The translations under genes and the position numbers were made by a program. Positions 12,608-39,256 of a stretch of 64,000 bases of DNA are shown in pieces. The notes below the pieces were generated by a model. It saw nothing but the letters and a program-made list of their open reading frames with translations. It was not told where the DNA came from and did not search any database. The stretch is from assembly GCA_964527555.1 (NCBI GenBank), contig CAZGOG010000006.1:276-64275 (forward strand), given 5' to 3'. The first letter of the stretch is position 1; the number at the start of each line of letters is the position of its first letter. The DNA is from an uncultured Planctomycetia bacterium (GTDB lineage Bacteria > Omnitrophota > Gorgyraeia > Tantalellales > Tantalellaceae).

Positions 12608-13129
12608 TTACAAAAGTTTTTTTATAATAGATTCAAAAAAGTCTTTGCCCCTGTAGCCGACTATCTTCTCTACGATCCTTCCCTTCCGGTCAATGATGAA
12701 CGTGGTTGGGATGCTCCTTATACCCCCGTAACTGGCAACCACTATCTGATCTGCCATAAGTACGGGGTAATCTATCTCGTTTGTCTGGACAAAAGGTCTC
12801 ACGGTAGCTGCCCCTCCCTGATCCAAGGCGACCCCTATAATCACAAGCCCTTTTCCCTTGTATCTCTGGTAGAGGTCCTTAAAGTGCGGCACTTCCATCC
12901 TGCAGGGCGGGCACCACGTCGCCCAGAAATCAAGTATGACCACTTTGCCTTTTGTCTGTGACAGCGAAAAGTCGTTACCGTTTAAATCTTTAAGCTTGAA
13001 ATCAGGGGCTACGGGTCTCAAGATATCAGATTCTGAAGATTCCGTGCGCGCCTGGCATGAAACAAGACTCGCCGCAATAAAAACTATTCCGATAAATACT
13101 AAAAATTTTAAACTTTTTCTTGTTTTCAC
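12608..13129 (-). CDS. TlpA/ResA-like thiol:disulfide oxidoreductase lipoprotein
   Basis: Has a signal peptide with a lipobox (LVSC) and the WATWCPPCRME thioredoxin-fold active site. Confidence 0.8.
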   Translation of the reverse strand: MKTRKSLKFLVFIGIVFIAASLVSCQARTESSESDILRPVAPDFKLKDLNGNDFSLSQTKGKVVILDFWATWCPPCRMEVPHFKDLYQRYKGKGLVIIGVALDQGGAATVRPFVQTNEIDYPVLMADQIVVASYGGIRSIPTTFIIDRKGRIVEKIVGYRGKDFFESIIKKLL

Positions 13130-15904: not shown

Positions 15905-16141
15905 TTACAGTCCCAGCGCGCTGGAGATCTTCTCTTTATCAAAACCCACGATTATCTCGCCTTCGATATCAAGGACCGGCACTCCCATCTGGCCGGATTT
16001 AGCGACCATCTCCTCGGCCCTGGCATGATTAGCGGAAACATCAATATCTTCAAAGTCTATATTATTATCTTTAAGAAACTGCTTCGTTTTTAGACAAAAC
16101 GGGCAAGTCGGAGTGCTGTAAATCATGATTTTTTTACTCAT
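15905..16141 (-). CDS. Glutaredoxin-like protein
   Basis: 78 aa with the CPFC active site (YSTPTCPFCLKTK). Confidence 0.8.
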   Translation of the reverse strand: MSKKIMIYSTPTCPFCLKTKQFLKDNNIDFEDIDVSANHARAEEMVAKSGQMGVPVLDIEGEIIVGFDKEKISSALGL

Positions 16142-19750: not shown

Positions 19751-19785
19751 AAAAAACGCCTGGCGGTAAAGCCAGGCGTTTTTCG
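19751..19785 (-). terminator. Intrinsic terminator of gdhA
   Basis: AACGCCTGGC-ggtaaa-GCCAGGCGTT is a perfect 10-bp stem flanked by an A-run and a T-run. It lies immediately 3' of the gdhA stop. Confidence 0.7.
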
Positions 19786-19799
19786 TCTTCTCCGAAAGT

Positions 19800-21194
<1,395 letters not shown>

Positions 21195-21245: not shown

Positions 21246-21290
21246 AATAAAAAAGGCATTCCGCTTCCTTTTCAGGAAGAAGAACGCCTT
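21246..21290 (-). terminator. Candidate intrinsic terminator after the lipoprotein gene
   Basis: An imperfect hairpin (GGCATTCCGCTTCC-ttttca-GGAAGAAGAACGCC) is followed on the minus strand by UUUUUUAUUUAU. Confidence 0.45.
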
Positions 21291-21394
21291 TGTTCTTTCC
21301 AGATACTGCTTTTACAACCGGCAGATATTGCCGTTATCCCCGGCACATAATTATCCAACATCACGCCGGGATAGTCAAGAAAAAATTAAAACAG

Positions 21395-24534: not shown

Positions 24535-25980
24535 TTACATCTGAGGCAGATTGCTCCGGCCCATCAGGAACTTATCGATATAATGCGCCGCTCGCCTGCC
24601 TTCTGAAACCGCCCAGACGATAAGCGATTGCCCTCTACGCGCGTCCCCTGCGGCGAATACTTTTTTGACTGAAGTCATAAAATCCGCATCCGTTTTAACG
24701 TTGAGGCGCTCATCATATTCAACGCCCAGTTCTTTGAGTAAACCTTTACTCTCCGGGCGGATAAACCCTACAGCAATTATAACAAGATCCGCTTCTATCT
24801 CAAATTCGCTTCCCGCCGCTTCCATCATGACGGGGCAGGTACTTTTGTCTTTTTTTGTAAACTCAACTCTTGCGCATCTAAGTTTGCTGACTCTGCCGCT
24901 TTCTCCCAAGAACTTCTTTGTCAGGACCGCCCAGTGCCTTTCGCCGCCCTCTTCATGGCTTGAAGTGGTTTTTAGTACGAGCGGATAAAGCGGCCACGGG
25001 TAATCTTCGCTCCGGCACTCATCCGGCTTAGGCATGATTTCTATCTGGACGACACAAGAGGCTCCCTGCCTATTTGCCGTGCCGACACAGTCTGCACCCG
25101 TATCCCCTCCGCCTATCACAACGACTTTCTTCCCCCTGGCATCGATAAGGGACTGCTGAGGGATATTCTCGCCCGCTACAAGCCTGTTAGACTGTACAAG
25201 ATAGTCCATCGCAAAATGAATACCCGCAAGATCCCGGCCTTCTATTTCAAGATCACGCGGGAGGCGGCAGCCGCCTGCCAGGCACACCGCGTCCTGAGCG
25301 CTCAAAAGTTCACTCGCCGGCAATGTCGCTCCCACATCCACACCGGTCATAAATCTAATGCCTTCCTCTTTCATAAGTTTAAGACGTCTATCTATGATCC
25401 ATTTTTCCAGTTTAAAGTCCGGTATCCCATAACGGAGTATGCCACCCGCTTTATCATCTTTCTCGTACACCATGACTTCATGGCCGGCGCGGTTAAGCTG
25501 CATGGCACAGGCCAGCCCCGCGGGCCCTGATCCGATCACGGCGACCTTTTTACCCGTCCGCACTTCTGGCACTCTGGGCACGATAAGACCTTCTTTAAAC
25601 GCACGCTCGATTATGATCAGTTCGTTTTCACGTATAGTCACGGGATCGTCGTTTATACCAAGAACACACGCGTATTCGCACGTTGCGGGACAGACACGGC
25701 CTGTTATCTCCGGCAGATTATTCGTCGCTTCGAGAAGTTCAAACGCACGCCGCCAATCGCCGGCTGCCGCCAGGTCATTCCATTCGGGGATATAGTTCCC
25801 GACCGGGCAGGCCCAGTGACAGAAAGGCGTACCGCAGTCCATGCAGCGGGAGGCCTGCTCCTGTGATTTTTCGTCCGTGCGCATAAGACTGACTTCTTTA
25901 TAATCTTTCACGCGTTCACAGACAGCTCTATACGGAGAAACTTCCCGTCTTGCTTTTAAAAATCCTTTCGGATCACCCAT
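24535..25980 (-). CDS. gltD: Glutamate synthase (NADPH) small subunit
   Basis: Has N-terminal Fe-S Cys clusters, two dinucleotide-binding GxGxxG motifs (VAVIGSGPAGL, VVVIGGGDTGAD) and a GltD-like N-terminus, at 481 aa. Confidence 0.9.
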   Translation of the reverse strand: MGDPKGFLKARREVSPYRAVCERVKDYKEVSLMRTDEKSQEQASRCMDCGTPFCHWACPVGNYIPEWNDLAAAGDWRRAFELLEATNNLPEITGRVCPATCEYACVLGINDDPVTIRENELIIIERAFKEGLIVPRVPEVRTGKKVAVIGSGPAGLACAMQLNRAGHEVMVYEKDDKAGGILRYGIPDFKLEKWIIDRRLKLMKEEGIRFMTGVDVGATLPASELLSAQDAVCLAGGCRLPRDLEIEGRDLAGIHFAMDYLVQSNRLVAGENIPQQSLIDARGKKVVVIGGGDTGADCVGTANRQGASCVVQIEIMPKPDECRSEDYPWPLYPLVLKTTSSHEEGGERHWAVLTKKFLGESGRVSKLRCARVEFTKKDKSTCPVMMEAAGSEFEIEADLVIIAVGFIRPESKGLLKELGVEYDERLNVKTDADFMTSVKKVFAAGDARRGQSLIVWAVSEGRRAAHYIDKFLMGRSNLPQM

Positions 25981-28900
25981 CAGACACCTCCAAAAGACCT
26001 AAACGCGCCTCTACCTGCTTGCCCGCCAAGACTTGTTTATACTCAATCGGCATAACCTTGACGAACTTTTCAAGTTCATTTGTGAAATCATCAAGCAGTT
26101 TCCCGGCAAGGGAACTGGCGGTATATCTGAAATGGTTATGCACAAGATTATAGATGCTGATCTTGTCTTCTTCATCGCATTTTTCCAGATGGACCATTTT
26201 CATGTTGCACCGGTCCTTAAAGCTATTATCTTCATCGTAAACATACGCTATCCCGCCTGACATGCCGGCAGCAAAATTCTTACCGGTCCTTCCCAGTATG
26301 ACTACCTTTCCTCCCGTCATATATTCACACCCGTGATCACCCACGCCTTCGGCCACCGCAAAAAGTCCGGAATTTCTTATGCAGAACCTCTCCCCGGCTA
26401 CACCCCTTATATAAGCTTCACCGGAAGTTGCGCCGTAAAAAGTCGTGTTGCCGATAATCACGTTCTCCTCGGGCTTGTAATCACTTTTTTTATCGGGATA
26501 AATAATAACTTTTCCGCCTGAGATGCTTTTGCCTACGTAATCATTCGCCATCCCTTCAAGTTCAAAAGTCACGCCTTTTGCAAGGAAGGCTCCAAAACTC
26601 TGTCCGGCGGTACCGGTAAACTTGCAGTGAATCGTATTTTCAAGCAAGCCCTTCTCGCCGTGCTTTCTGCAAACCTCACCGCTCAACATCGCACCGCATG
26701 TCCTGTTATTGTTTCTTATGGGAAACTCAAGTTTTACGGGTTCAGCTTTTTCCAGGGCGTTTTTTGCTTTGCGGATGATGTCCCGATCGAGCACCTCATC
26801 GATCCCGTGGTTCTGCTCAACCAAACACCTCGTGCCGACTTTTCCAGAAACCTCGGGTTTATACAGTATCCGCGAAAGGTCTATTCCTTTGGCTTTTTCA
26901 GGGAATATACCTTTATTGGCTTCCAAAAGATCAGTCCTTCCCACCATCTCGTCAATGCTTCTCAGGCCCAGACTGGCCATAATCTCGCGCAACTCTTCCG
27001 AAATAAAACGCATGTAACTTACGATATATTCCGGACGCCCCTGAAACCTCTTCACGAGCATCTCATCCTGCGTAGCGACTCCCACCGAGCAATTATTGAG
27101 GTGACAGTGCCGGAGCATAACGCAGCCCAGCACCACTAAAACGGAAGTGCAGAACCCAAACTCTTCCGCGCCTAAAATGGCCGCTATCGCAACGTCCCTG
27201 CCGGTCCGCATCTGACCGTCGGTCTGAAGGCGGACCCTGCTCCTGAGCCGGTTAAGGACCAAAGTCTGGTGCGTCTCGGAAAGCCCAAGTTCCCAGGGAA
27301 GACCCGCGTACATTATGGAGCTTCTCGGGGAAGCCCCGGTCCCGCCGTCTCCGCCGGATATAAGTATCATATCCGCGTGCCCTTTGGCCACCCCTGCCGC
27401 TACCGTACCGACACCTATCTCGGAAACGAGTTTTACACTTACCCGGGCACGGGGATTTGCATTTTTGAGATCAAAAATAAGCTGCGCAAGGTCCTCGATA
27501 GAATAAATGTCATGATGCGGCGGCGGTGAAATAAGTGTGACTCCCGGCGACGTATAACGTGTCCGGGCTATAATAGCGCTTACTTTGTAGCCGGGCAACT
27601 GCCCCCCTTCACCCGGTTTTGCTCCCTGAGCGATCTTTATCTGCAACTCATCAGCGTTTACCAGATAATTGATAGTCACGCCGAACCTGCCTGAAGCGAC
27701 CTGTTTTACGGCGCTACGCGTCGAATCGCCGTTCGGCAGGGAAACAAAACGCGAAGGGTCTTCCCCGCCTTCACCGGTGTTTGATTTCCCGCCGAGACGG
27801 TTCATAGCTATGGCTATGGCTTCATGCGCACCCTTGCTTATCGAACCGAAACTCATGGCACCGGTCACGAAACGAGTGACTATTTTTTCAACCGGTTCCA
27901 CTTCGCTTACAGGGATGGGTGCGGTTTTTTTAAATTTAAAAAGGCTTCGTATAGTGGTCGGACTGGCGGACTGATCGTTAATAAGCTCTGCAAACCTCTT
28001 ATATATCGAGTAGTCTTCTTTCCTGGCAGAATCCTGGAGAGCGGCAATGCTCTCAGGCTGCCACAGGTGAAATTCCCCGTCTCTTTTCCACTGGTAAACT
28101 CCTCCGGAGACGAGCTTTGCAGCGCCTGTTTCCCTTTCGGGAAAGGCCTCTCTGTGCCTAGCAAGCGTCTCCTCCGCTATGCTTTCCAGCGTGAGGCCGC
28201 CCACCCTGGATACGGTGCCGCCAAAATGATTGCTGGCAACATCATCCGCAAGTCCCAACGCTTCGAAGATCTGCGCGCCGCGGTAACTGCGAAGCGTCGA
28301 TATCCCCATTTTTGAAAGTATCTTCAAGATCCCCTTGTTTATGGCTTTTCTGTAATTTTCAAGCGCCTTCCCCATATCCTTGGGCCCCTCCCCCTCTTTA
28401 ATAAGGTGTTCTATGGCCTCGTAAGCCAGATAGGGATTAACACAAGCGGCTCCGTATCCCAGAAGCAGAGCAAAATGCTGCACCTCTCGGGGTTCGGCGC
28501 TTTCAACGATAAGCCCCACTTCGGAACGTATAGTCTTCCTGACAAGATGCTGGTGTACCGCGCTCACAGCTAAAAGCGCAGGTAGCGCTGCATTATTTTT
28601 GTCTACACCGCGATCACTTAATATAACAAACGAATAACCCTGCTCTATCGCATATTCGGTCTCAAAACATATTCTTTCCAGAGCATGAATAAAATTTTCT
28701 ATTTTTGACGCGTCAAAAATAGTTAAAACCGTCTTCGTCTTAAAACTGTTCACCCTGATATTACGTATCTTCTCAAGCTCTTCGTCGGTGATGACGGGCT
28801 TTTTTATCCCAAGCTTGTGGCAGTGTTCGGGAGTCTCTTCGAGAACATTTTTCTCCGGCCCCACAAAACTTTCCAGGCTCATCACCAGCTCTTCCCGTAT

Positions 28901-30502
28901 GGGGTCTATCGGCGGGTTTGTCACCTGCGCAAAAAGCTGCTTGAAATAGTTGTACAGCATCTGGGGCCGTTTTGAAAGAAACGCATGGGGCGTATCGTTG
29001 CCCATGGAACCAACAGGTTCTTTTCCTTCAAGAGCCATCGGTTTTATGATCATCTTCATGTCTTCCCGGGAATAACCGAACGCTTTCAGCCGCGCAAAAA
29101 TATCGGCCTCTTTCGGGGAACTCTTGAGCGCCTGAGGGACCTCGTCAAGATCCACCATATTATCCCTGATCCACTGGTGGTAAGGATGACGGGATGCAAT
29201 CATCTTTTTTATTCCATCGTCCCCGATTATGCGTCCAAGTTCGGTGTCGATAAAGAACATCTTACCGGGCTCAAGCCTGCCCGAGACTTTGATGTCAGCG
29301 GGATCTATGTCAAGCACCCCGACCTCGGATGCCATCACCACAAAGCCTTTCTTTGTTATGATGTAACGGGCGGGGCGAAGACCGTTCCTGTCCAGTACCG
29401 CTCCCACTTGCGAGCCGTCAGTAAACGCTATTGCCGCGGGACCGTCCCACGGTTCCATAAAACAGGCATGGTATTTGTAAAAATCACGGAGACTTTTGTC
29501 GATCTTTTTATCCTGTTCCCAGGCGTTCGGTATGAGCATCATCATGGCATGCGGCAGCAGTCTACCGGAAAGAACCAGTAGTTCGAAGACATTATCAATC
29601 GTAGCGGAATCGCTTCCCCCCTCGACTATCACGGGTTTGATCTTGGCTATATCGCTGCCAAAAGACGGGCTTGCCAGGAGCCGTTCCCTGGCACTCATCC
29701 AGTTAATATTGCCCCTTAATGTGTTTATTTCCCCGTTATGAGCAAGAAAGCGGAACGGCTGCGCCAGGTCCCACGTAGGAAACGTATTCGTACTGTACCG
29801 GGAATGCACCAAGGCGATCGCGCTTTCCATACGTTTATCCTCAAGATCCGGATAATACCCTTTTAACTGTCCCGGCATCAATAACCCTTTATAGCTTATC
29901 GTTCTTGAAGAAAGGTTTGTTATGTAAAAAAAACTTTTCTGGCTGATCCCGGATGCGCGGATCTCTTTTTCTATCCTCTTGCGGATAACATACAGCTTCC
30001 GTTCGAAGGCCAAGTTCTCCAGAGCCTGGGCGCCTTTTGCTATAAACACCTGTTTTATGACGGGCTGCGTCTCTTTTGCGCCTTCGCCGATAATCGAATC
30101 ATTTACAGGCACGTCACGCCATCCAAGCTGTTTCTGCGCTTCTTCCCCTATTACTCTTGAGAAGACTTTCTCGCAAAAATCGCGCTCTTCTCTATCAGTT
30201 GGCAGAAATACAAGTCCCGTCCCATAGCCGCCAAAAGGGGGGAGTTCAATCCCGATACTGCCGCACACTCCGGCATAAAAGTCATGTGGGATCTGGATAA
30301 GGATACCCGCTCCATCGCCGGTTTTGGGATCGGCACCTACCGCACCTCTGTGGCTCATCCTTTCAAGAACTTCGGCTGCCTTGCTGATAACATCATGAGA
30401 CTTCCTGCCGCTGATGTTACAGACAAACCCCACCCCGCAGCTGTCATGCTCGAAGCGCCCGTCATAAAGTCCTTGTTTTTGCGGTAAACGGTCTTTTTTC
30501 AT
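25973..30502 (-). CDS. gltB: Glutamate synthase large subunit
   Basis: 1509 aa. After Met removal the N-terminal Cys of the Ntn amidotransferase begins CGVGFV. FMN/3Fe-4S central domain motifs and a C-terminal GXGXG repeat domain are present. The ATGA overlap with gltD is conserved. Confidence 0.95.
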   Translation of the reverse strand: MKKDRLPQKQGLYDGRFEHDSCGVGFVCNISGRKSHDVISKAAEVLERMSHRGAVGADPKTGDGAGILIQIPHDFYAGVCGSIGIELPPFGGYGTGLVFLPTDREERDFCEKVFSRVIGEEAQKQLGWRDVPVNDSIIGEGAKETQPVIKQVFIAKGAQALENLAFERKLYVIRKRIEKEIRASGISQKSFFYITNLSSRTISYKGLLMPGQLKGYYPDLEDKRMESAIALVHSRYSTNTFPTWDLAQPFRFLAHNGEINTLRGNINWMSARERLLASPSFGSDIAKIKPVIVEGGSDSATIDNVFELLVLSGRLLPHAMMMLIPNAWEQDKKIDKSLRDFYKYHACFMEPWDGPAAIAFTDGSQVGAVLDRNGLRPARYIITKKGFVVMASEVGVLDIDPADIKVSGRLEPGKMFFIDTELGRIIGDDGIKKMIASRHPYHQWIRDNMVDLDEVPQALKSSPKEADIFARLKAFGYSREDMKMIIKPMALEGKEPVGSMGNDTPHAFLSKRPQMLYNYFKQLFAQVTNPPIDPIREELVMSLESFVGPEKNVLEETPEHCHKLGIKKPVITDEELEKIRNIRVNSFKTKTVLTIFDASKIENFIHALERICFETEYAIEQGYSFVILSDRGVDKNNAALPALLAVSAVHQHLVRKTIRSEVGLIVESAEPREVQHFALLLGYGAACVNPYLAYEAIEHLIKEGEGPKDMGKALENYRKAINKGILKILSKMGISTLRSYRGAQIFEALGLADDVASNHFGGTVSRVGGLTLESIAEETLARHREAFPERETGAAKLVSGGVYQWKRDGEFHLWQPESIAALQDSARKEDYSIYKRFAELINDQSASPTTIRSLFKFKKTAPIPVSEVEPVEKIVTRFVTGAMSFGSISKGAHEAIAIAMNRLGGKSNTGEGGEDPSRFVSLPNGDSTRSAVKQVASGRFGVTINYLVNADELQIKIAQGAKPGEGGQLPGYKVSAIIARTRYTSPGVTLISPPPHHDIYSIEDLAQLIFDLKNANPRARVSVKLVSEIGVGTVAAGVAKGHADMILISGGDGGTGASPRSSIMYAGLPWELGLSETHQTLVLNRLRSRVRLQTDGQMRTGRDVAIAAILGAEEFGFCTSVLVVLGCVMLRHCHLNNCSVGVATQDEMLVKRFQGRPEYIVSYMRFISEELREIMASLGLRSIDEMVGRTDLLEANKGIFPEKAKGIDLSRILYKPEVSGKVGTRCLVEQNHGIDEVLDRDIIRKAKNALEKAEPVKLEFPIRNNNRTCGAMLSGEVCRKHGEKGLLENTIHCKFTGTAGQSFGAFLAKGVTFELEGMANDYVGKSISGGKVIIYPDKKSDYKPEENVIIGNTTFYGATSGEAYIRGVAGERFCIRNSGLFAVAEGVGDHGCEYMTGGKVVILGRTGKNFAAGMSGGIAYVYDEDNSFKDRCNMKMVHLEKCDEEDKISIYNLVHNHFRYTASSLAGKLLDDFTNELEKFVKVMPIEYKQVLAGKQVEARLGLLEVSDG

Positions 30503-30512
30503 CTTTATCCCT

Positions 30513-30743
30513 CTATATTCTGAACTTTTTTACGTCGATATTCAACCTTTTTATCTTCATGCGCAGGGTATTACGGTTTATCCCCAATATTTTTGAGGCA
30601 ATGGACTGGTTACCGAAGGATCTTTTAAGCGTTTTTTCGATCAGCGCCTTCTCGGTATCATTGATGACCCTTGAGTATACATTTCCCTTCTCCGTTACCA
30701 GCATCAGGTCCTCTATCATTTTATCCGTCTTTTCCTTAATCAT
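30513..30743 (-). CDS. Standalone Fis-type helix-turn-helix DNA-binding protein
   Basis: The 76-aa C-terminus QSIASKILGINRNTLRMKIKRLNI is a Fis/NtrC-type HTH. There is no receiver or AAA+ domain. Confidence 0.7.
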   Translation of the reverse strand: MIKEKTDKMIEDLMLVTEKGNVYSRVINDTEKALIEKTLKRSFGNQSIASKILGINRNTLRMKIKRLNIDVKKFRI

Positions 30744-30868
30744 TGCCCTGTCTCCTTATCAAATTTTGACTGAATTCTATGCACATCTTTGTAAAAAAAA
30801 GCCCCCTTCAAAGCTTTCTCTGCTTCGAAGAGGGCATCTTCGCCTCTTTCCCCTACAATGGGATTTCT

Positions 30869-30907
30869 ATAAAATAAAAACCCCCAGGAACTCTTAATCC
30901 ATGGGGG
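30869..30907 (-). terminator. Terminator-like hairpin downstream of glnK, lying inside the leader of the Fis-gltBD transcript (candidate attenuator)
   Basis: The minus strand reads CCCCCAUGG-auuaagaguu-CCUGGGGG followed by UUUUUAUUUUAU. It sits about 25 nt downstream of the predicted TSS of the promoter at 30940-30968. Confidence 0.45.
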
Positions 30908-30939
30908 CTTCATCGCCTTACAACAACTTTGTTGATTGT

Positions 30940-30968
30940 ATGATACCACCGCTTTAAGAGTTTGTCAA
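30940..30968 (-). promoter_or_regulatory. Candidate sigma70 promoter for the Fis-gltBD operon (TTGACA-N17-TATCAT)
   Basis: Read directly. The -35 is at plus 30963-30968 and the -10 at 30940-30945. Confidence 0.4.
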
Positions 30969-31037
30969 GCTGTAAATGCCTCTTTACAGGCCTTTTAAGG
31001 CGTCTCAGCACTTAGCTCCTAAAAGCGCAATATCCGT

Positions 31038-31379
31038 TTATCCTATTGCTTCGTTTCCCTCTTCGCCTGTCCGTATCCTTATGCAGCGCGGAAGGTCAAG
31101 GACAAATATTTTCCCATCCCCTATACGGCCTGTCCTGGCACCTTTCATTATCGCATCTATAGTAGGCTTCACGAAGTTTTCGTTTACTGCAATATCCAAA
31201 CGTACTTTTTTAAGAAGATTTACCTCGTGAACGACGCCCCTGTAGGTTTCCGTGTAACCTTTTTGCTGTCCGCATCCAAGGGCGTTTGTCACTGTCATCT
31301 TATATACTTCCGCATCAAAAAGCTCTCTTTTGACATCCGGCAGTTTATGAGGTTGTATCATCGCAATTATGAGTTTCAT
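31038..31379 (-). CDS. glnK: Nitrogen regulatory protein P-II
   Basis: 113 aa starting [13 protein letters not shown], with a T-loop YRG (ETYRGVV) and a B-loop [12 protein letters not shown]. It lies immediately downstream of amt. Confidence 0.9.
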
Positions 31380-31394
31380 TTTCCCCTCCTTATG

Positions 31395-32741
31395 TTATTG
31401 TGCCGTAAAGATCTGGAACCCCGCATACGCTTCCATGCCGTGTTCGGTGATATCCAGCCCTTTAAGCTCCTCTTCCCTGGAGACCCTTAAACCGATCGTT
31501 ATGTCGATCAGTTTAAAAATTATCGTCATAGTCACCAGAACAAAAGCTATCACGCTTCCCACTCCTAGAATTTGAACGCCAAGTTGGGCGAATCCTCCGC
31601 CGTGTAAGAGTCCTTCTCTGGCAAGTCCAAGAGCTTTGTGCCCGAAAATCCCTACTGCCAAAGTCCCCCAAATACCGTTCATCATATGTACCGGCACCGC
31701 ACCCACGGGATCGTCAACATGGACTTTATCAAGAAAAAGCGTGCCCATAACAACGATTATCCCACCGATAAAACCGATTATAAGAGCTTCGTACGGCAGT
31801 ACATAAGCACACGGTGCCGTTATCGCTACAAGCCCCGCAAGGGCACCGTTCATCGTCATCGATAGATCCGGTTTACCGCACTTCTTCCACGCAAAGAACA
31901 TGGCGGTAAGCCCGCCTGCCGCCGCCGCCAGATTGGTATTTATTGCTACTTTTGCCATAAGGCTTCCGTCTCCCACGCTTAAAGTCGAGCCCGGGTTAAA
32001 ACCAAACCATGCGAACCAAAGGATCAAAGCTCCCAGCGAAGCAAGTGCCATTGAGTGGCCTTCGATGGCATTCGCCGAACCGTCCTTATTATACTTCCCG
32101 ATCCTGGGCCCGAGCATCATGGTCCCCACCAGGGCAGCAGTCCCACCTACGGCATGGACGACCGTCGATCCGGCAAAATCCCCAAATCCCAGGCTGCTAA
32201 GCCATCCTTCGCCCCATATCCAGTGACCGACAAAAGGATAAACAGTCGCGGATATCAGAAACGAGTAAATAAGGTAGCACTGGAATTTCATCCTTTCGGC
32301 AATACCGCCTGCTACTATAGTGGCAGCCGCACCGCAGAAAACCGCGTGAAAAAGCCATGCCGCCTCAAGCGGTATACCCCCTTCATGCGTCGCGTTAAGC
32401 AGGAAAAATCCGTTAAAGCCCATGAACCCGTTACCCTTGCCGAACATGAAAGCATATCCGAAGATAAAAAACCCCAGGGACGCCATACAAAAGTCCAGAA
32501 AGTTATTCATAAGCACGTTACAGGTGTTCTTGGTCCTGATAAGCCCCGCCTCGAGCATCCCGAACCCCGCCTGCATGATGAAGACAAAAAACGCCGCGAT
32601 CATGACCCATAAGGTGTCGATCCCTACGGTACTGGCATAAATCTCGCCTCCTTCCGCAAAAACGGGTGCGGTAAAGCACAAACCCGCTAAAAGGGCTACC
32701 ACCCCCATAACCTTTAACAGTTTCACTTTTCTCTTGAACAT
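31395..32741 (-). CDS. amt: Ammonium transporter
   Basis: Amt/MEP family with a signal peptide, 11 TM helices and the conserved twin-His (AVGGTAAL...HGGG region), at 448 aa. Confidence 0.9.
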   Translation of the reverse strand: MFKRKVKLLKVMGVVALLAGLCFTAPVFAEGGEIYASTVGIDTLWVMIAAFFVFIMQAGFGMLEAGLIRTKNTCNVLMNNFLDFCMASLGFFIFGYAFMFGKGNGFMGFNGFFLLNATHEGGIPLEAAWLFHAVFCGAAATIVAGGIAERMKFQCYLIYSFLISATVYPFVGHWIWGEGWLSSLGFGDFAGSTVVHAVGGTAALVGTMMLGPRIGKYNKDGSANAIEGHSMALASLGALILWFAWFGFNPGSTLSVGDGSLMAKVAINTNLAAAAGGLTAMFFAWKKCGKPDLSMTMNGALAGLVAITAPCAYVLPYEALIIGFIGGIIVVMGTLFLDKVHVDDPVGAVPVHMMNGIWGTLAVGIFGHKALGLAREGLLHGGGFAQLGVQILGVGSVIAFVLVTMTIIFKLIDITIGLRVSREEELKGLDITEHGMEAYAGFQIFTAQ

Positions 32742-32772
32742 ACTAGCCTCCTTTCCTGTTTAGTTAACACAA

Positions 32773-33621
32773 TCAATAATCAAAACTTACTTTTATCCCG
32801 CCGTAAAACTCGTTCCGAGATGCATCGTTATATGTACTGCGGTCAAGAATAAGCGAGTAACTCACGCTCGGTGTAACAGTGAAATAATGAAAAAACGGGA
32901 TATTTACTTCACCGGAGAATACCATATCGCCCCATCCTGTCTTATCAGTCCACTGCTCGTCGATAATACCGGTTGTCATGGCTAAAGCGGCAGATATCCC
33001 GCTTTCTCCGAAGTCAAAGGTATGGCCTATCCCGAACAGGAAATATGAGCCGTCGCCTCCTCCATCGCTATTACCTTTACCGCTACCCACATCCCAGTAC
33101 CATGTAAAAAAGGGCTGCAAGAACATGTCATAGGAAACACTTATATATATCTCATGAGTGTCGAAAAACTTACTATCCCAGTCTAAGTTCGGAAAAGTAT
33201 AACAGGTATACCCCGCTGAGATGTTTAACGGATCCAGAAAATCCGGTGAATCAACATCGAAAGTTTCCGACATCTCACCTATATTAAACGTATAATCAAT
33301 CGTGTAATCTATTTCCGTGAATTCCCGGTATCTAGCGGCATCTCTGGACTTTTCATCGTTTAGGCTGTAGTTTGCCCAAAAATCAAAAGTAAAACCCCAT
33401 TTAGATACCGACGCATCAAACTGCATTACGGGTTCGTCCCCGAGATTCCATCCCCTCCAGATGTATTTTGTCATGAGCGCTGTACTAAAAGAGACGTCTG
33501 GAAGCCACTCGGGCTTTTCGCCCAGCCATTCATCATTAAAACCATCGGCATGGGCTCTCATGCCGCAAAAAAACAATATCGGCGTTACTGCCAAAAATGT
33601 AATCATTGTTTTTCTAAACAT
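32773..33621 (-). CDS. Putative outer-membrane beta-barrel protein (porin-like), co-oriented 31 nt upstream of amt
   Basis: Has a signal peptide and alternating amphipathic strands rich in Y/W/G/D. The C-terminus KVSFDY ends in an aromatic residue, typical of OM barrels. A strong SD (AAAGGAGGG) is present. Confidence 0.5.
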   Translation of the reverse strand: MFRKTMITFLAVTPILFFCGMRAHADGFNDEWLGEKPEWLPDVSFSTALMTKYIWRGWNLGDEPVMQFDASVSKWGFTFDFWANYSLNDEKSRDAARYREFTEIDYTIDYTFNIGEMSETFDVDSPDFLDPLNISAGYTCYTFPNLDWDSKFFDTHEIYISVSYDMFLQPFFTWYWDVGSGKGNSDGGGDGSYFLFGIGHTFDFGESGISAALAMTTGIIDEQWTDKTGWGDMVFSGEVNIPFFHYFTVTPSVSYSLILDRSTYNDASRNEFYGGIKVSFDY

Positions 33622-33749
33622 CTCAATCCCTCCTTTTTCAAGCGCTTAAGATAAATCCTCATGGATTAACATCCGTGGTGTTCCTTCGTTCTAAGTGCAA
33701 AATATCTTTCCCCGCAGATTCATGGTGAGCGAACGAAGTGAGTCGAACC

Positions 33750-33798
33750 ACAAAAAACGCCCTTTTTGAAGCTACCCATTGCTTCAAAATAGGGCGTC
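33750..33798 (-). terminator. Intrinsic terminator of the GAF-ANTAR gene
   Basis: A 17-bp stem (GACGCCCTATTTTGAAGC / GCTTCAAAAAGGGCGTT) is followed on the minus strand by UUUUUUGUGG. Confidence 0.6.
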
Positions 33799-33910
33799 TT
33801 AGCCTTAATATGCCATCTATGGAATTTAAACAAAAAACCTCGGGAGTTATTACCCCCGAGGCTGCTTTGCCGTTTGTAACTTCTTTGTTAGAGAAGCACG
33901 GTTAAATGTG

Positions 33911-34609
33911 CTATTTCCTTATCTCAAAAGAAAGTATTATCGCTTCTGCGATCTCTTTCATGGAGACCCGTTTATTCATGCTGGTCTTCCTGATCAGGCT
34001 AAAGGCCTCTTCTTCAGCGAGTCCTTGTTCCTTCATCAGAATCCCTTTTGCCTTTTCAATCTTCTTTCTGCTCTCAAGTTCTTCTTGTATGACTTTAGTC
34101 TTGACCATAAGTTCTGTATTCTCTATAGCCACCGCTGCCTGATTAGCCACCGCACTTAAGAGATCTATATCGCTTTTGGTGAACTCATACGATTCCACGG
34201 TATAAACATTTAACACGCCTATGGGCCTGTCCTTCACCATCATGGGAACGCTCAGCATTGAGACAAGTTTCTCTTTTTTAGCAAGTTCCTTTTCTTTATA
34301 CTTATCGTCTTTGGCGACATCCAGTATCACTATCGGTTTCTTCTCCTTGGCTACGCGTCCGACGATACCTTCCCCGACTTTTATTGCCCTTTCTTTGAGA
34401 TACTCCTGACTCATGGTCTGCGTAGCCCTTATGGTAAGCTCCTGTTTTTCCTCGTCAAGGAGCCATAAAGCGCATATCTTCGCGCCCATGACATTCGCAG
34501 TAAGATTCACTATAAGCCTCAGGATATCTTCCAGATAAAGATCAGACGTTATAGCCTTACTGATCCTTGTCAGAGTCGAAAGATATTCTTTTTCGGACAT
34601 TTTTTCCAT
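33911..34609 (-). CDS. GAF-ANTAR RNA-binding antiterminator-type regulator
   Basis: An N-terminal GAF domain is followed by the C-terminal ANTAR motif KAKGILMKEQGLAEEEAFSLIRKTSMNKRVSMKEIAEAII. Confidence 0.8.
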   Translation of the reverse strand: MEKMSEKEYLSTLTRISKAITSDLYLEDILRLIVNLTANVMGAKICALWLLDEEKQELTIRATQTMSQEYLKERAIKVGEGIVGRVAKEKKPIVILDVAKDDKYKEKELAKKEKLVSMLSVPMMVKDRPIGVLNVYTVESYEFTKSDIDLLSAVANQAAVAIENTELMVKTKVIQEELESRKKIEKAKGILMKEQGLAEEEAFSLIRKTSMNKRVSMKEIAEAIILSFEIRK

Positions 34610-34632
34610 GACTATATTTACCCCTTATTTTT

Positions 34633-36759
34633 TCATATCATGAACAGCATCTCCGCATAGGAAGGTAGCGGCCATATCTCATCCGGTACTAACCCTTCCA
34701 AGGCATCTACGGCCTGGCGGAGCTCGTTCATCGCAGATATTATCTTGCCGCTAGAGCCGTTTTCCAGACACTTTTCAAGTTTTTTTATGTTTTCAAGCAT
34801 CTTCTCTGTCTCTTCAGATACTTCTTTCAGAAGCTTCTTTGTAGCGGTTACTTTACCGCCGCATCCTGCGACATCTTCTACTGCCCTGGCCAAATTCGCC
34901 TGGTATTCAAGCGCTGCCGGAACAATCATCGTTTTTGCCATCGTCAAAGCAACCGATGCCTCTATGGCAGTCGTCCGTTCATACTGTTCTTTATAAATCT
35001 CATAGCGCGACATAAGCTCTGTTTTGGAGAGAACCTTGTGCCTCTCAAATAAAGAGACTACCTTTTCGTCTTTCATCACTTTAAGCGCTTCCGGGGTCGT
35101 TTTGAGATTAAGTAGACCCCGCTTTTCAGCCTCTTTGTGCCACTCTTTGGTATAGTTATCGCCGTTAAAAAGTATGCGTTTATGTTTTTTAACTATATCC
35201 TGCAATATCGACTGGAGAGCCTTGTTGAAATCCTTCTTAGTCTTGCCTGATTTCTCCAGTTTAGTGCATATCTCGTCAAGCGCGTCAGCGATAATAGTAT
35301 TCAAAACTATGTTAGCCCCGGCACAGCTCTGGTTGGACCCGACGGCACGGAACTCAAATTTATTCCCCGTAAAAGCGAAAGGCGACGTCCTGTTGCGGTC
35401 GGTCACATCACGCGGCAGAGTCGGCAGGGAAGTGACGCCTACTTGTATCGCATCTATTTTCTTAGAAGTTTTCGCACCGCCCTTCTCGATCTGTTCTATG
35501 ACATCCGTAAGCTGCTCTCCCAGAAAGATGGAAAGGATCGCAGGCGGCGCTTCGTTAGCGCCGAGCCTGTGGTCGTTTCCTGCGCTGGCTACGCTTGCTC
35601 TAAGTATGCCCGCATGAGTATCAATAGCCTTCATGAGCGCGCATATCATTGTGAGAAATTTAGCGTTCTCATGGGGGTTTTCACCCGGAGAAAGCCAGTT
35701 CTTGTCGTCAGGCCCGACAATCGACCAGTTGTTATGTTTACCGGAACCGTTAACGCCTGCAAAAGGTTTTTCATGAAGAAGACATACTAAGTCGTACTTT
35801 TCCGCGGCTTTTTTTAAAAGCTCCATCGTGATCATGTTATGATCGACGGAAAGGTTCTGCTCTTCAAAGACCGGCGCGATCTCAAACTGTGCGGGACAGA
35901 CTTCATTGTGCCGCGTCTTCGCCGGGATCCCCATCTTCCACATCTCGCGATCCAGCTCTTCCATGAAAGACATGACCCTGGTCTTTATGGCGCCGAAATA
36001 ATGGTCTTCCATCTGCTGGTGTTTTGCCGGAGCTCTGCCGAAAAGCGTCCTTCCGGTCTGAATAAGATCCAGTCGCGCTTCGTAATATCTCCTGTCTATA
36101 AGAAAATATTCCTGTTCGGGACCCAAAGTTGCGTAAGCGCGTTTATTTTTAACGTCAATACCGAACAATTTAGCCAAACGGCATACCTGTTTAGATAAAG
36201 CCGCCGCGCTCCTTAAAAGAGGCGTTTTCTTATCAAGCGCCTCACCGTGATAAGAGTAGAACGCCGTGGGTATACACAAGGTGGCTACATTCTCTCCCTC
36301 TTTTATGAAAGCCGGGGAAGTCGGGTCCCAGGCGGTATATCCGCGTGCCTCAAAAGTCGCCCTAAGCCCCCCCGAAGGAAAGCTGGATGCATCCGGTTCG
36401 CCCTTTATAAGCTCTTCTCCCGAAAACTTCATTATGACTCCGCCTTCCTGGTCAGGAGAGATGAAAGAGTCGTGTTTCTCCGCTGTTGCCCCCGTTAAAG
36501 GCTGGAACCAGTGAGTAAAATGTGTGGCGCCTTTCGACACCGCCCAGGTCTTCATAGCGTCGGCCACTTCATCGGCAATATTCGGGTCCAACGAACGGCC
36601 CTGCCTTATGGTTGAGACAAGCGACTTGTACGCAGTCTCCGAAAGGTAATTGCGCATATTCTTCAGGCTGAATACGTTTTCACCGTAAAAATCGGGCACC
36701 ATCGGTACATCCCTTTTCCTAGAGTTTTCTTTCATTATTGCCCCCCTTTTCTTAAACAT
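34633..36759 (-). CDS. glnN: Glutamine synthetase, type III
   Basis: At 708 aa the size and N-terminus fit GSIII. The GS catalytic region contains a conserved E/H/R ATP-binding stretch. Confidence 0.85.
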
Positions 36760-36845
36760 TATTTTATCACCTATTTCTCTAAAAGCAACACAACAAAGTC
36801 AATCTCCTCTTTCCCCCATCAAAACCCGCCGACATGACAGGCTGT

Positions 36846-36897
36846 AAAATAAAAAACGCCCTTGTCGGCCGCTTCCCCTCTGGCCTAAAAGGACGTC
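36846..36897 (-). terminator. Second terminator-like structure in the glnN leader (candidate attenuator)
   Basis: The minus strand reads GACGUCC-uuuuaGGCCagaggggaagcGGCCgacaa-GGGCGUU with G-U wobbles, then UUUUUUAUUUU. It lies about 90 nt upstream of the glnN ATG. Confidence 0.4.
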
Positions 36898-36955
36898 TTT
36901 ATCCTCAGGTGTTTCAAACTTTGAATTTCGCCTAGCGCACTTCTTTTATGCGCCT

Positions 36956-36985
36956 AAAATAAAAAAGGCGTTCTCTCTGAACGCC
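36956..36985 (-). terminator. First terminator in the glnN leader (GGCGUUC-agaga-GAACGCC + UUUUUUAUUUU). It may also terminate the upstream hydrolase gene.
   Basis: A perfect 7-bp stem and U-tract were read directly. It lies about 30-50 nt downstream of the predicted glnN TSS and 70 nt past the hydrolase stop. Confidence 0.55.
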
Positions 36986-37020
36986 TCATTGCTTGCCTTA
37001 CACTGCCTCGTGCAACTATT

Positions 37021-37048
37021 ATTTTACACAATATCCATTTTTTGTCAA
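37021..37048 (-). promoter_or_regulatory. Candidate sigma70 promoter of glnN (TTGACA-N16-tgtgTAAAAT)
   Basis: Read directly. It has an extended -10 and sits just downstream of the hydrolase stop codon. Confidence 0.45.
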
Positions 37049-37054
37049 TACTTT

Positions 37055-39256
37055 TTATCTTACTTTTTTTATTTTACACGCGATATCTTTCGAAAATTGC
37101 GGGATCTCTACGCGAAGTTCGCCCCCCTTTGACATGATCCCCTCTGTTGAAACAACCTCGCCTTTAAAGGTATCCCACCACTCGACTATATGCCTTCCCT
37201 CTTCTGCAACTTTTACCTGAAAGTAAGCGTTTTTAACCGGCTCCGGTTCTATTTCATAAAAGGTGTCTTTCCAGTTAAAGCCTTTGTTCTGCACCCAAAA
37301 AAGCATCTGGTCCCCTACTACCAGACCGATACATCTGGCATTTGCCTGGTTATCATAAACATAATCTGTAAGCGTTATTGTTTTTATACCCAGCCAGTCT
37401 TTCCCGGTATTATAAAGCGTAATCGTGTGTTTACCCTTCGGGACTTCTATCGCAAAATCCTTGTCATAAACACATTGGTAAACTTCCCACTTTCTTAGAT
37501 AGAGACTCCTTGCCCATGGCCCGTCCCCGGGGCCTGCAAAGAACCTTTTTGCCGCTACTTGCTCGCCATCCAAAAATACATGAAGATGCGCACCCTGGCT
37601 CACTGTTCCTATCCGTATAATGAACTTGCCATCGTTCGGATAATCCACATGGAAAATATGATTTATCCTTTTGTCTTTTTCTTTCTCTCCGTGAAGGAAC
37701 CTGTTTGGCTGCCCCACACCGTCAAGTTCACCGTTATCTAGAACAGTAAAAGTGTTATTGTACAGCTTGGCCCACTTATCTTCCGTTTTGATCACAGCGT
37801 TCCTGTAAGATAGTTTCGCTCCTTCCTCCATATTCAGCATCATGGGGCCGATTTCGGCATATTCCACCTTTTTTGAATCCCAGTCCACCCCATGAAGAAA
37901 CTTTGCCAAAGCGTTATAATGATAATAAAGATCTCTCGGCCGGATATAAGTGTCCCACCACCAGCTCATCGCCGTACCGAAAGATTTCGATAAGCCGGAA
38001 GACCAGAGGCTGTTATGAAGTGCGGTGCCATACCCCTTAGGGTCATAGTATTTATCATCTCTTTGTGCGTCTATCCCGCATTCCGCAATAATAAAAGGTT
38101 TATTATACCTGGAAGCGGGTTCTTTGCTTTTTTGTTCTATTAAAGGGACCATGGAATTCTCCGTGGCGTTACCGTATAGATGAACCGTTACCATACTAAC
38201 GTCGTTTAAGTCCCACACTTCCGATTCATCAGGCACCTCCCCAAACGGATACCCGAAACTTGTAGTAATAAACTGACCGTGCGGATTGATGGACCGTATA
38301 AATGAAGCCATCTCTTCCACCCATTCCGCCGGCGCGTTGTATTCGTTCCACAGTTCAAACGCGATAATGCTGGGGGAATAACTCCACCGGGAAATAATAT
38401 ATCTTAACCTGTTTTTGTACAAGCGTTTGGCTTCTTTATTGGTAAAAAACTCTTCCGGCCTTCTGCAGGGACCGCCGTTAACTTTGTTATAGGGGTTTAA
38501 GTGCCACTTGTTTTCACCCCAGTACCCTTCTTCTTCCATGAGATTGCCGTATGTGTCTATGCATAGAAGGAAATACACGCCCCGCTCTTCCATAAGTTTG
38601 ACGAGTCTGTCTATTTTCGCGGATGACGTTTGGCTGTATTCTCCGAGAGCGCCCCACTCTATGGGAAAGGACCAGCTGGAAAGCCATACTCTGGTCAAAT
38701 TCCCGCCGCACCTCTTAAGGCTGGTTAAATATCTGTCAAAAATCGATATGTGATCTTCCTGTACCCATGCAATATTATGTCCTATACCGAAAAAAGGCCT
38801 CCCCGAGCTGGAGACGAGGTAATGAGGGTTATTTTTGCTCCTGCGCAAGAAACCATCCCCTCCCCCTTTCAGTGAATCAAAAGAGTAAATTTGCGTAGTC
38901 GATTTCAGCGCCTTTGATTCCAGCTTGAGACTATACTGGTACCTGCCTTCCTCTTCGGGGGTATACCGCACCTCCCATGAAGACTTGTTCAGCCAGTTCT
39001 GGTTCTCAAGACAAAAACCGGACAAAGTAACCGTCTTGCCGGAGGGGGCGGTTATAACCATCTCCAGTTGGACCCCTAAAGAATCATTGGGGTTTTCTTT
39101 GAAATACGGAAGAGTAGCGGAAAGCTTAAAAAGCTCATACTGTTTCACCTCTTTAGGCGCGGAAGTGATAGTAATACTTTCAGCAAAACCCGGCGTGTGG
39201 CCAATAAAAGTATACATAAGTATTATAAAGAATATTTTCTTGCAGAAATTATACAT
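37055..39256 (-). CDS. Secreted glycoside hydrolase (TIM-barrel, clan GH-A-like) with an N-terminal Ig-like/accessory domain
   Basis: Has a signal peptide. The motif IIAFELWNEYN resembles the acid/base Glu in an NE motif, and IIAECGID resembles a nucleophile Glu. Size is 733 aa. Confidence 0.5.
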   Translation of the reverse strand: MYNFCKKIFFIILMYTFIGHTPGFAESITITSAPKEVKQYELFKLSATLPYFKENPNDSLGVQLEMVITAPSGKTVTLSGFCLENQNWLNKSSWEVRYTPEEEGRYQYSLKLESKALKSTTQIYSFDSLKGGGDGFLRRSKNNPHYLVSSSGRPFFGIGHNIAWVQEDHISIFDRYLTSLKRCGGNLTRVWLSSWSFPIEWGALGEYSQTSSAKIDRLVKLMEERGVYFLLCIDTYGNLMEEEGYWGENKWHLNPYNKVNGGPCRRPEEFFTNKEAKRLYKNRLRYIISRWSYSPSIIAFELWNEYNAPAEWVEEMASFIRSINPHGQFITTSFGYPFGEVPDESEVWDLNDVSMVTVHLYGNATENSMVPLIEQKSKEPASRYNKPFIIAECGIDAQRDDKYYDPKGYGTALHNSLWSSGLSKSFGTAMSWWWDTYIRPRDLYYHYNALAKFLHGVDWDSKKVEYAEIGPMMLNMEEGAKLSYRNAVIKTEDKWAKLYNNTFTVLDNGELDGVGQPNRFLHGEKEKDKRINHIFHVDYPNDGKFIIRIGTVSQGAHLHVFLDGEQVAAKRFFAGPGDGPWARSLYLRKWEVYQCVYDKDFAIEVPKGKHTITLYNTGKDWLGIKTITLTDYVYDNQANARCIGLVVGDQMLFWVQNKGFNWKDTFYEIEPEPVKNAYFQVKVAEEGRHIVEWWDTFKGEVVSTEGIMSKGGELRVEIPQFSKDIACKIKKVR

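Follow-up and report, generated by a model that had tools for sequence, protein, structure and literature searches.

A GAF-ANTAR gene and seven putative ANTAR-type attenuators in an ammonium-assimilation locus of Omnitrophota

Introduction

In a stretch of 64,000 nucleotides (nt) from an uncultured bacterium of the phylum Omnitrophota (GenBank assembly GCA_964527555.1, contig CAZGOG010000006.1, positions 276 to 64,275 of the forward strand; the whole stretch is called the window here), a gene for a type III glutamine synthetase (GS), glnN, is directly followed by a gene for a regulator that combines a GAF domain with an RNA-binding ANTAR domain. Does this regulator control the adjacent GS gene by antitermination, and do other genes of the locus come under the same control? 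A sequence-only reading of the region had described a glnN promoter, a leader with two tandem terminators and the regulator gene right behind glnN, and had predicted that the GAF-ANTAR protein acts as an antiterminator on this one leader. Here, we report that the window holds seven units that resemble ANTAR substrates, and we put the probability of ANTAR-type attenuation of the ammonium-assimilation genes by the adjacent GAF-ANTAR protein at about 0.8.

Results

The glnN leader

An ANTAR substrate consists of two short hairpins (P1 and P2), each with a hexaloop that has A as its first and G as its fourth nucleotide, and the distal strand of P2 is part of the proximal strand of a terminator (PMC3369931, PMC3369936). 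The features of the glnN operon are as follows.

34633..36759, minus strand: longest open reading frame (ORF) of glnN, type III GS (Pfam GSIII_N 1.4e-79)
33911..34609, minus strand: GAF-ANTAR regulator, 232 amino acids (aa) (Pfam GAF_2 4e-26, ANTAR 3e-21)
From the hydrolase-like gene to the longest glnN ORF, minus strand: intergenic leader, 295 nt
37021..37048, minus strand: sigma-70-type promoter of the glnN operon, TTGACA-N16-TAAAAT, 11/12 consensus positions
36999..37014, minus strand: unit A1, P1 UGCAC-GAGGCA-GUGUA; 5 base pairs (bp), hexaloop, G at position 4
36983..36992, minus strand: unit A1, P2 GC-AAUGAG-GC; A at position 1, G at position 4, 3′ strand within the stem of terminator 1
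36954..36987, minus strand: terminator 1, 9-bp stem and loop AGAGA, then UUUUUUAUUUU; hairpin -13.3 kcal/mol
36913..36925, minus strand: unit A2, P1 UUC-AAAGUUU-GAA; 7-nt loop, non-canonical
36889..36906, minus strand: unit A2, P2 (GA)GGAU-AAAGAC-GUCC(UU); 3′ strand forms the base of terminator 2
36845..36897, minus strand: terminator 2, hairpin of 41-43 nt (about 36897..36855), then UUUUUUAUUUU; hairpin -18.9 kcal/mol

The glnN product contains all three parts of a type III enzyme (Pfam GSIII_N 1.4e-79, Gln-synt_C 2.3e-20, Gln-synt_C-ter 4.4e-43). Because GlnN orthologs measure 698-701 aa, translation probably begins at the second ATG (36735), which has a G-rich ribosome-binding site ahead of it, and the ORF start at 36759 is probably eight codons too early. 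The sequence-only reading was thus right about the leader and gave its length too short, at about 250 nt; with the start at 36735 it measures about 280 nt. Between the glnN stop codon and the start of the regulator gene lies a terminator-free gap of 23 nt. The reported adjacency of the two genes is confirmed, and the two form a predicted operon from which they would be co-transcribed. The promoter and the two tandem terminators were likewise found as described, and dual hairpins of the ANTAR type, which that reading had proposed to look for in the leader, stand ahead of both terminators.

The promoter was kept in 9/9 orthologous glnN leaders as TTGACA-N16/17-TAAAAT or TATAAT, 7-12 nt ahead of P1; therefore, both terminators lie inside the transcript. 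Promoter and both terminators recur in the orthologous leaders of other genomes, and 10 of the 27 leaders compared have two terminators, each with a P2. For A1, which is part of a covariance-model match at 36980..37014 (18.9 bits), the P1 stems of orthologs read GCAC/GUGC, ACAC/GUGU and GUAC/GUGU, and P2 takes the form GC-RAWGAR-GC. For A2, the P2 sequence AGGAU-AAAGAC-GUCCU is kept in at least 12 orthologous leaders, and in P1 the UUC/GAA stem recurs with a variable loop. The stem of terminator 1 reads GAGGCGUUC-AGAGA-GAACGCCUU at 36987..36965. The sequence-only reading had this terminator double as that of the upstream hydrolase gene, which is possible, but it does not account for the existence of terminator 1, which is also present in orthologous leaders that lack the hydrolase gene. 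As a control for chance structure, shuffled sequences were used: the glnN leader folds more stably than its shuffled versions (z = -2.8), and the region contains 26 terminator-like sites compared to 9.3 expected.

Between terminator 1 and A2 (36929-36948, minus strand) stands an additional hairpin, GCGCA-UAAAAGAAG-UGCGC, whose loop includes AAAGAA. It could be a further ANTAR contact or mere spacer structure, and its conservation in orthologs is not obvious.

Further units in the window

The window holds seven dual-hairpin/terminator units. A pair precedes glnN, another pair lies in the spacer from the ANTAR gene to the porin-amt-glnB genes, a third stands ahead of fis-gltBD, and gdh has a single unit before it. 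Regulation limited to the glnN leader, as first proposed, is too narrow for seven units counted on four transcription units. The units beyond the glnN leader, with the associated promoters, are the following.

33836..33890, minus strand: unit B1; P1 UAAC-AAAGAA-GUUA (33890..33877), P2 GGC-AAAGCA-GCC (33871..33860), terminator 33863..33836 with U-tract
33756..33822, minus strand: unit B2; P1 CC-AUAGAU-GG (33822..33813), P2 GGC-UAAGAC-GCC (33804..33793), terminator 33798..33756 with U-tract
30940..30968, minus strand: sigma-70-type promoter of fis-gltBD, TTGACA-N17-TATCAT with TG 5′ of the -10 box, 11/12 consensus positions
30879..30934, minus strand: unit C1; P1 CAAC-AAAGUU-GUUG (30934..30921), P2 GGC-GAUGAA-GCC (30917..30906), terminator 30909..30879 with U-tract
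30801..30863, minus strand: unit C2; P1 UCCC-AUUGUA-GGGG (30863..30850), P2 GGC-GAAGAU-GCC (30844..30833), terminator 30835..30801 with U8
21350..21378, minus strand: promoter-like site of gdh, TTGACT-N17-GATAAT, read directly off the sequence, outside the consensus scan
21254..21315, minus strand: unit D1, single; P1 GUA-AAAGCAG-UAU (7-nt loop, 21315..21303), P2 AAGAAC-AAAGGC-GUUCUU (21297..21280), terminator 21289..21254 with UUUUUUAUUU

The consensus scan found no promoter-like site between the ANTAR stop codon and B1, and for this reason B1 and B2 were treated as intercistronic. The gdh leaders always have a single unit, and those of other loci repeat both the GAAC-AAAGRC-GUUC P2 hairpin and the 7-nt P1 loop.

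All seven terminators are preceded by P1 and P2 hairpins that resemble those of ANTAR substrates. In 7/7 units, P2 reaches with its 3′ strand into the 5′ arm of the terminator and takes 3-10 nt from the terminator base. G stands at loop position 4 in 14/14 loops, and position 1 is A in 10/14, G in three and U in one. A stem of at least 3 bp together with a 6-nt loop is found in 10/14 hairpins; the stems of A1-P2 and B2-P1 have only 2 bp, and the loops of A2-P1 and D1-P1 have 7 nt, which leaves these four shy of the canonical definition. The P1-P2 linkers measure 3 (C1), 5, 5, 5, 6 and 8 nt, and that of A2 measures 6-8 nt; in the Enterococcus faecalis eut leaders they measure 5-12 nt (Ramesh 2012). 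Walshe 2022 reduced the minimal motif to one hexaloop, with one ANTAR dimer contacting a single hexaloop, and by analogy such a contact may explain why P2 is strong and conserved in units with a weak P1, such as A2.

The seven terminator hairpins range from -13 to -24 kcal/mol (B1, -20.2; B2, -24.2; C2, -23.6; D1, -22.0 kcal/mol), and each is followed by 5-8 U, as in intrinsic terminators. In all units, folding into the terminator is predicted to yield 5-17 kcal/mol more than folding into P1+P2. Since the terminator fold is the more stable one, termination would be the default, and read-through would need a factor that keeps P2 closed; this energy gap has the look expected of a protein-dependent antiterminator, as far as predicted folds go.

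Covariance model and enrichment

An independent covariance model, R1, was seeded with 11 ungapped units of equal geometry, all from other genomes, so that the units of the window were excluded. The seven window units were also aligned with MAFFT, but the result misaligned P1 structurally and was left unused. With filters off, the top five R1 matches in the window were C1 (27.7 bits, E = 1e-4), C2 (26.7 bits), B1 (23.5 bits), A1 and B2 (15.5 bits, E = 0.09), and the best other match reached 9.5 bits. A2 and D1 were not significant, and the match to D1 was partial (8.2 bits). In the comparative sample, which consisted of the window and 80 related Omnitrophota loci (1.14 Mb, both strands), R1 gave 51 matches at E up to 1, of which 50/51 were on the strand of the regulator.

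The stems also covary. Among 50 distinct sequences, in an alignment that was fitted to the R1 structure and so favours pairing, 93.6% of the cells were paired compared to 75% in column shuffles, and there were 69 double-change cells compared to 22, a value that 0/500 shuffles reached. When the partner column was slid by one to three columns, pairing fell to 16-50%. Five or six pair types occur at each of the two outer P1 pairs, and the closing pairs of P1, A-U and C-G (AC...GU), are nearly invariant in the Omnitrophota alignment.

In addition, an independent rule-based scan was run for strict P2 hairpins, whose loop had to begin with A and carry G in fourth place, whose stem had to have at least 3 bp and which had to overlap the terminator. 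Strict P2 hairpins were found at 52% of the terminators in the leaders of glnN, porin, amt, PII, fis, gltB and gdh genes. As negative controls, they were found at 6% of opposite-strand terminators and at 5% of those inside genes (Fisher p = 3e-21).

Rfam 15 gave no relevant match, either for the whole window at gathering scores or for 30400-37200 at E up to 10, where only two irrelevant sub-threshold matches appeared. Some candidates from our own scans were rejected. A permissive terminator finder, which also called many hairpins in coding regions, gave extra dual matches at 52815, 46369, 40010, 24203, 19453, 2803 and 1416; these have non-canonical loops (at most one of the two starts with A), lie in or near unrelated genes and were taken as chance. 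Two weak R1 matches, at 16075-16110 and 12936-12963, were discarded as they lie inside ORFs (glutaredoxin-like gene).

The GAF-ANTAR protein

The C-terminal part of the regulator matches the ANTAR domain PF03861 (3.2e-21, profile positions 4-54 of 54, residues 175-225), and the matches of this region in the Protein Data Bank (PDB) are EutV (1.3e-12), Rv1626 and NasR. The AlphaFold2 model (mean predicted local distance difference test score, pLDDT, 83) shows a GAF domain, a helix of about 50 residues (145-195) and two further helices (199-213 and 217-231), so that the predicted fold has the expected coiled-coil and three-helix ANTAR layout. When aligned to EutV, the protein keeps 10/11 of the hexaloop-contacting residues of the EutV-RNA structure (PMC8934654), namely R181, K182, K186, K188, E199, F203, R207, M211, N212 and R214. 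The one changed contact is R177 of EutV, which is S216 here. F203, a tyrosine in most orthologs, is the counterpart of the EutV tyrosine that stacks on G4, and the contact residues show little or no variation among 20 orthologs.

The GAF domain has its best PDB match in 3ci6, the EI-Ntr GAF domain (E = 1.8e-15), and Foldseek returned 3ci6 and 3trc with target-normalised template modelling scores of 0.85-0.86, with 3ci6 at 0.86. The NCBIfam models nifA (4.2e-21) and PtsP (2.8e-19) match the GAF region only, far under their full-length cut-offs, and the identity to the GAF domains of EI-Ntr and NifA is only about 25%. By sequence and fold, the domain is classed as being of the EI-Ntr/NifA type. 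The GAF domain of NifA responds to 2-oxoglutarate and PII. That of EI-Ntr binds glutamine (PMC4848567). By analogy, we reason that the ligand here would report nitrogen status and would be glutamine and/or 2-oxoglutarate, or PII.

Conservation in other Omnitrophota

Homologs of the regulator with 70-88% identity, annotated as Candidatus Omnitrophota, were found in 418 species-level genomes. In most of the 80 loci, the regulator gene adjoins GS, amt-PII, gltBD or gdh genes, and glnN lies directly 5′ of it in about 40/80. Downstream of the regulator, many loci have porin-amt-PII-(fis)-gltBD, often with gdh nearby, and about 20 keep the porin-amt-PII order.

Three loci carry a type I GS of 444 aa in place of glnN upstream of the regulator (L042 8599-9933, L068 3350-4684, L072 8670-10004). 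Pfam confirms a GS in L042 and L068, and L072 is assigned from identical length and position. The leaders of these type I genes are still of the ANTAR type; this exchange of the enzyme with the leader kept argues that the GS-regulator operon predates the choice of GS type.

Other genes stand behind ANTAR units in some loci. An ORF of 173-183 aa follows an ANTAR unit after the regulator in many genomes (L005 10917-11447, L010, L037, L042, L046, L048, L067, L075, L077). The L005 copy, the sole copy scanned, gave no Pfam match, and the ORF may be an uncharacterised member of the regulon. In two loci (L027 11045-12136, L015 11141-12328), the ANTAR unit after the regulator gene has carA, for the small chain of carbamoyl-phosphate synthase, and the gene for cytidine triphosphate (CTP) synthase downstream of it. 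Both products are glutamine amidotransferases, and the regulon may reach glutamine-consuming enzymes.

Gene order of the window

The relevant genes all lie on the minus strand of the window. The neighbours of the glnN operon are listed in the order of transcription.

37055..39256, minus strand: hydrolase-like gene, DUF5060-containing, upstream neighbour of the glnN leader
From the GAF-ANTAR gene to the porin-like gene, minus strand: spacer, 289 nt, carries the B units
32773..33621, minus strand: gene for a porin-like outer-membrane protein, no match in Pfam/NCBIfam
31395..32741, minus strand: ammonium transporter gene amt (Pfam Ammonium_transp 2e-129)
31038..31379, minus strand: PII gene glnB (Pfam P-II 5.5e-26)
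From glnB to fis, minus strand: spacer, 294 nt, carries the C units
30513..30743, minus strand: gene for a Fis-family helix-turn-helix protein, 76 aa (Pfam HTH_8)
25973..30502, minus strand: gltB, large subunit of glutamate synthase (Pfam GATase_2 4e-182, Glu_synthase)
24535..25980, minus strand: gltD, small subunit of glutamate synthase (Pfam Fer4_20 and Pyr_redox_2)
21936-24509, minus strand: gene for a protein of 857 aa, ATP-grasp type, like PPDK_N and phosphoenolpyruvate (PEP) synthase, with scores far under the PEP synthase cut-offs
Between the PPDK_N-like gene and the gdh spacer, minus strand: gene for a small peptidoglycan-binding protein
Upstream of gdh, minus strand: spacer, 215 nt, carries D1
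19800..21179, minus strand: glutamate dehydrogenase gene gdh (Pfam ELFV_dehydrog 1.5e-92)

The porin-like ORF at 32773-33621 encodes a signal peptide and a C-terminal ...SFDY, and it lies directly upstream of amt both here and in about 20 Omnitrophota loci; its product may serve as a channel of the outer membrane specifically for the uptake of ammonium. The 76-aa Fis-family gene is directly 5′ of gltB and behind C1 and C2, a pairing that is kept in about 12 loci, and its product may be a DNA-binding co-regulator of glutamate synthase. The PPDK_N-like gene comes after gltD on the same strand, and the gltBD transcription unit may include it. Just past the gdh stop codon lies a perfect palindromic hairpin, ACGCCUGGC...GCCAGGCGU (19756-19779), with U-tracts on both strands, which is likely a bidirectional terminator between gdh and the convergent gene.

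Discussion

Proposed mechanism

The prediction of the sequence-only reading, namely that the GAF-ANTAR protein acts on the glnN leader by antitermination, is supported by the hairpins, their covariation and the retained EutV contact residues. From the sequences, we infer that the GAF-ANTAR protein binds these RNAs and that read-through results, and the identity and sign of the signal proposed below are of the same standing. In this model, constitutive promoters of the sigma-70 type would start the glnN-(GAF-ANTAR), fis-gltBD and gdh transcripts, and by default the nascent leaders would fold into strong intrinsic terminators, so that transcription ends. When the GAF domain reports nitrogen need, one or more ANTAR dimers would bind the hexaloops of P1 and P2. 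With P2 held closed, the terminator would be deprived of its base and detached from the U-tract, and the polymerase would read through.

In the three leaders with two units in series, two independent read-through decisions would be required, which would lower the leak and sharpen the response. Because the regulator gene sits behind the two terminators of the glnN leader, the regulator would be subject to positive autoregulation. As the interval from the ANTAR stop codon to B1 gave no promoter-like site, it is probably at B1 and B2 that the glnN-ANTAR transcript either stops or continues into porin-amt-glnB.

The most economical signal would be low glutamine and/or high 2-oxoglutarate. Direct sensing of glutamine or 2-oxoglutarate by the regulator is a tentative idea to which we give rather less than even odds. 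The same caution, with the balance again somewhat on the doubtful side, holds for the wider proposal of a one-component sensor in which glutamine and/or 2-oxoglutarate on the GAF domain switches hexaloop binding, and which would serve the phylum as master nitrogen regulator in place of NtrBC, GlnR and NtcA.

Evidence for and against

Several observations weigh against attenuation by the GAF-ANTAR protein. The account for Omnitrophota is built on sequence and comparative evidence. Four of the 14 loops do not start with A; the two 2-bp stems and the two 7-nt loops count on the same side, as do the missing significance of A2 and D1 with R1 and the pairing bias of the covariation alignment. The 3-nt linker of C1 has the length that abolished function in eutP (Ramesh 2012). 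That gdh has the same type of switch as GS and glutamate synthase (GOGAT) is physiologically unexpected, as the two routes are usually regulated oppositely; in Geobacter, gdhA is repressed when the targets of the ANTAR regulator GnfR are induced, and here gdh carries the same type of unit. Finally, a second ANTAR gene near some loci leaves the cognate regulator unproven.

This last point leads to the strongest alternative, namely that the attenuators are of the ANTAR type and are read by a different ANTAR protein encoded elsewhere (e.g. a receiver-ANTAR protein like GnfR or NitR), with the GAF-ANTAR protein having other targets or being a partner only. A second, distant ANTAR gene was found less than 10 kb from the GAF-ANTAR gene in six related loci (L024, L039, L040, L066, L067 and L079; 27-34% identity, 58% in L067), the characterised ANTAR regulators of nitrogen genes all use receiver, pseudo-receiver or NIT inputs, and our view of this genome covers 64 kb. 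However, the GAF-ANTAR gene lies within the regulon with two units before it and two after it, its product is 70-88% identical across 418 species-level genomes with the RNA-contact residues kept, it stays linked to GS even after the change of GS type, and 50/51 covariance-model matches are on its strand. We consider this alternative unlikely, although it is the most probable one after control by the GAF-ANTAR protein itself.

Much less probable is the explanation by ordinary constitutive terminators, which would end the upstream genes and act as insulators without conditional read-through, the small hairpins being chance products of AT-rich intergenic DNA. Terminator 1 comes after the hydrolase gene, B1 after the ANTAR gene and C1 after glnB, and each could end the gene before it; a loose hairpin search also gave 5-13% false positives at control terminators. 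However, since conserved promoters sit upstream of the terminators in A, C and D, after the preceding gene, constitutive terminators there would silence the operons. Moreover, the units were recovered by an independent covariance model, their stems covary, the strict P2 stands at 52% and 6% of target and opposite-strand terminators, and orthologs whose upstream genes differ still have the terminators.

The least credible alternative is that of ligand-binding riboswitches (e.g. for glutamine) or ribosome-mediated leader-peptide attenuators in place of protein-dependent switches: glutamine riboswitches do control nitrogen genes in other phyla and an AUG in the A1-P2 loop opens a frame of 11 codons, but no relevant Rfam family matches the window at gathering scores or 30400-37200 at E up to 10, and the conserved part consists of two tiny hairpins without a ligand pocket. 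A leader peptide from this AUG was rejected, as the AUG is absent in orthologs with an AAAGAG loop and has no ribosome-binding site.

Significance

GAF-ANTAR is among the commonest ANTAR architectures, and the literature searched describes no characterised ANTAR protein with GAF input and an assigned signal or targets; the same literature yielded no paper that pairs Omnitrophota with ANTAR. If the wider proposal of a directly sensing master regulator is true, no earlier GAF-ANTAR protein would have had its signal and regulon defined, and the tandem attenuators together with positive autoregulation would make a sharp switch with low leak. The locus offers a complete pairing of one small regulator, seven RNA targets of clear geometry and an obvious candidate signal (glutamine or 2-oxoglutarate). 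It points to a way in which ammonium assimilation may be controlled in a large phylum of uncultured bacteria with small genomes, namely by RNA switches on constitutive promoters, and it provides a natural set of single and tandem protein-dependent attenuators for the study of the effect of serial terminators on a response.

Comparison with known systems

ANTAR control of nitrogen genes is known already, as it was predicted in 2012 and experimentally established for GnfR of Geobacter. Ramesh et al. 2012 predicted ANTAR nitrogen regulons in several phyla, with PII, amt, glutamate synthase and glutamine synthetase genes among the targets (PMC3369931); Desulfotomaculum acetoxidans has 13 units in 6 transcription units, and glutamate synthase genes of D. 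reducens were also predicted as targets (PMC3369931). The Omnitrophota units share with these regulons the paired hairpins, here with G at loop position 4 throughout and mostly with hexaloops and A at position 1, the overlap of P2 with the terminator, the same nitrogen targets and the presence of several units per organism, and the A-U and C-G closing pairs of P1 are conserved in EutV targets as they are here. In contrast, Omnitrophota were outside the 2012 sampling, the input here is a GAF domain, the loop of some P1 hairpins is 7 nt long, and position 1 is taken by G or U in several loops; the present locus also documents a strict tandem layout of two units per leader, with the regulator gene between units.

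In Geobacter sulfurreducens, GnfR of the GnfK/GnfR pair relieves premature termination in the nifH, glnK and amtB leaders (PMC2995071). Its RNA site, CAGGCAANGGCGCC, reads GGC-AANGGC-GCC and has the GGC-hexaloop-GCC form of the P2 hairpins here (PMC2995071). The regulator of this locus has a GAF input and the promoters here resemble those of sigma-70, whereas GnfR, a response regulator, is phosphorylated and belongs to a sigma-54 cascade. EutV/EutW of Enterococcus faecalis (PMC3369931, PMC8934654) is similar in 10/11 RNA-contact residues and in having several cluster terminators, each with P1 and P2, and it differs in its receiver-domain input, its ethanolamine signal and its ethanolamine-utilisation targets.

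NasR of Klebsiella and AmiR of Pseudomonas are also ANTAR antiterminators that act on the leader terminator of a nitrogen-related operon, and NasR is a one-component sensor like the protein proposed here. However, the signal of NasR is nitrate, sensed by a NIT domain, AmiR contains a pseudo-receiver domain and is held by AmiC, and each acts on one leader with one unit. For the input domain, the GAF domains of EI-Ntr (PtsP) and NifA are the best matches in sequence and structure, whereas their outputs are a phosphotransferase and a sigma-54 activator, and at about 25% identity the ligand of the GAF domain here is presumed from theirs. Compared to all of these systems, what is new in this locus is the phylum, the GAF input, the tandem layout kept in orthologs, the regulator among its own targets and the variant of P1 with a 7-nt loop.

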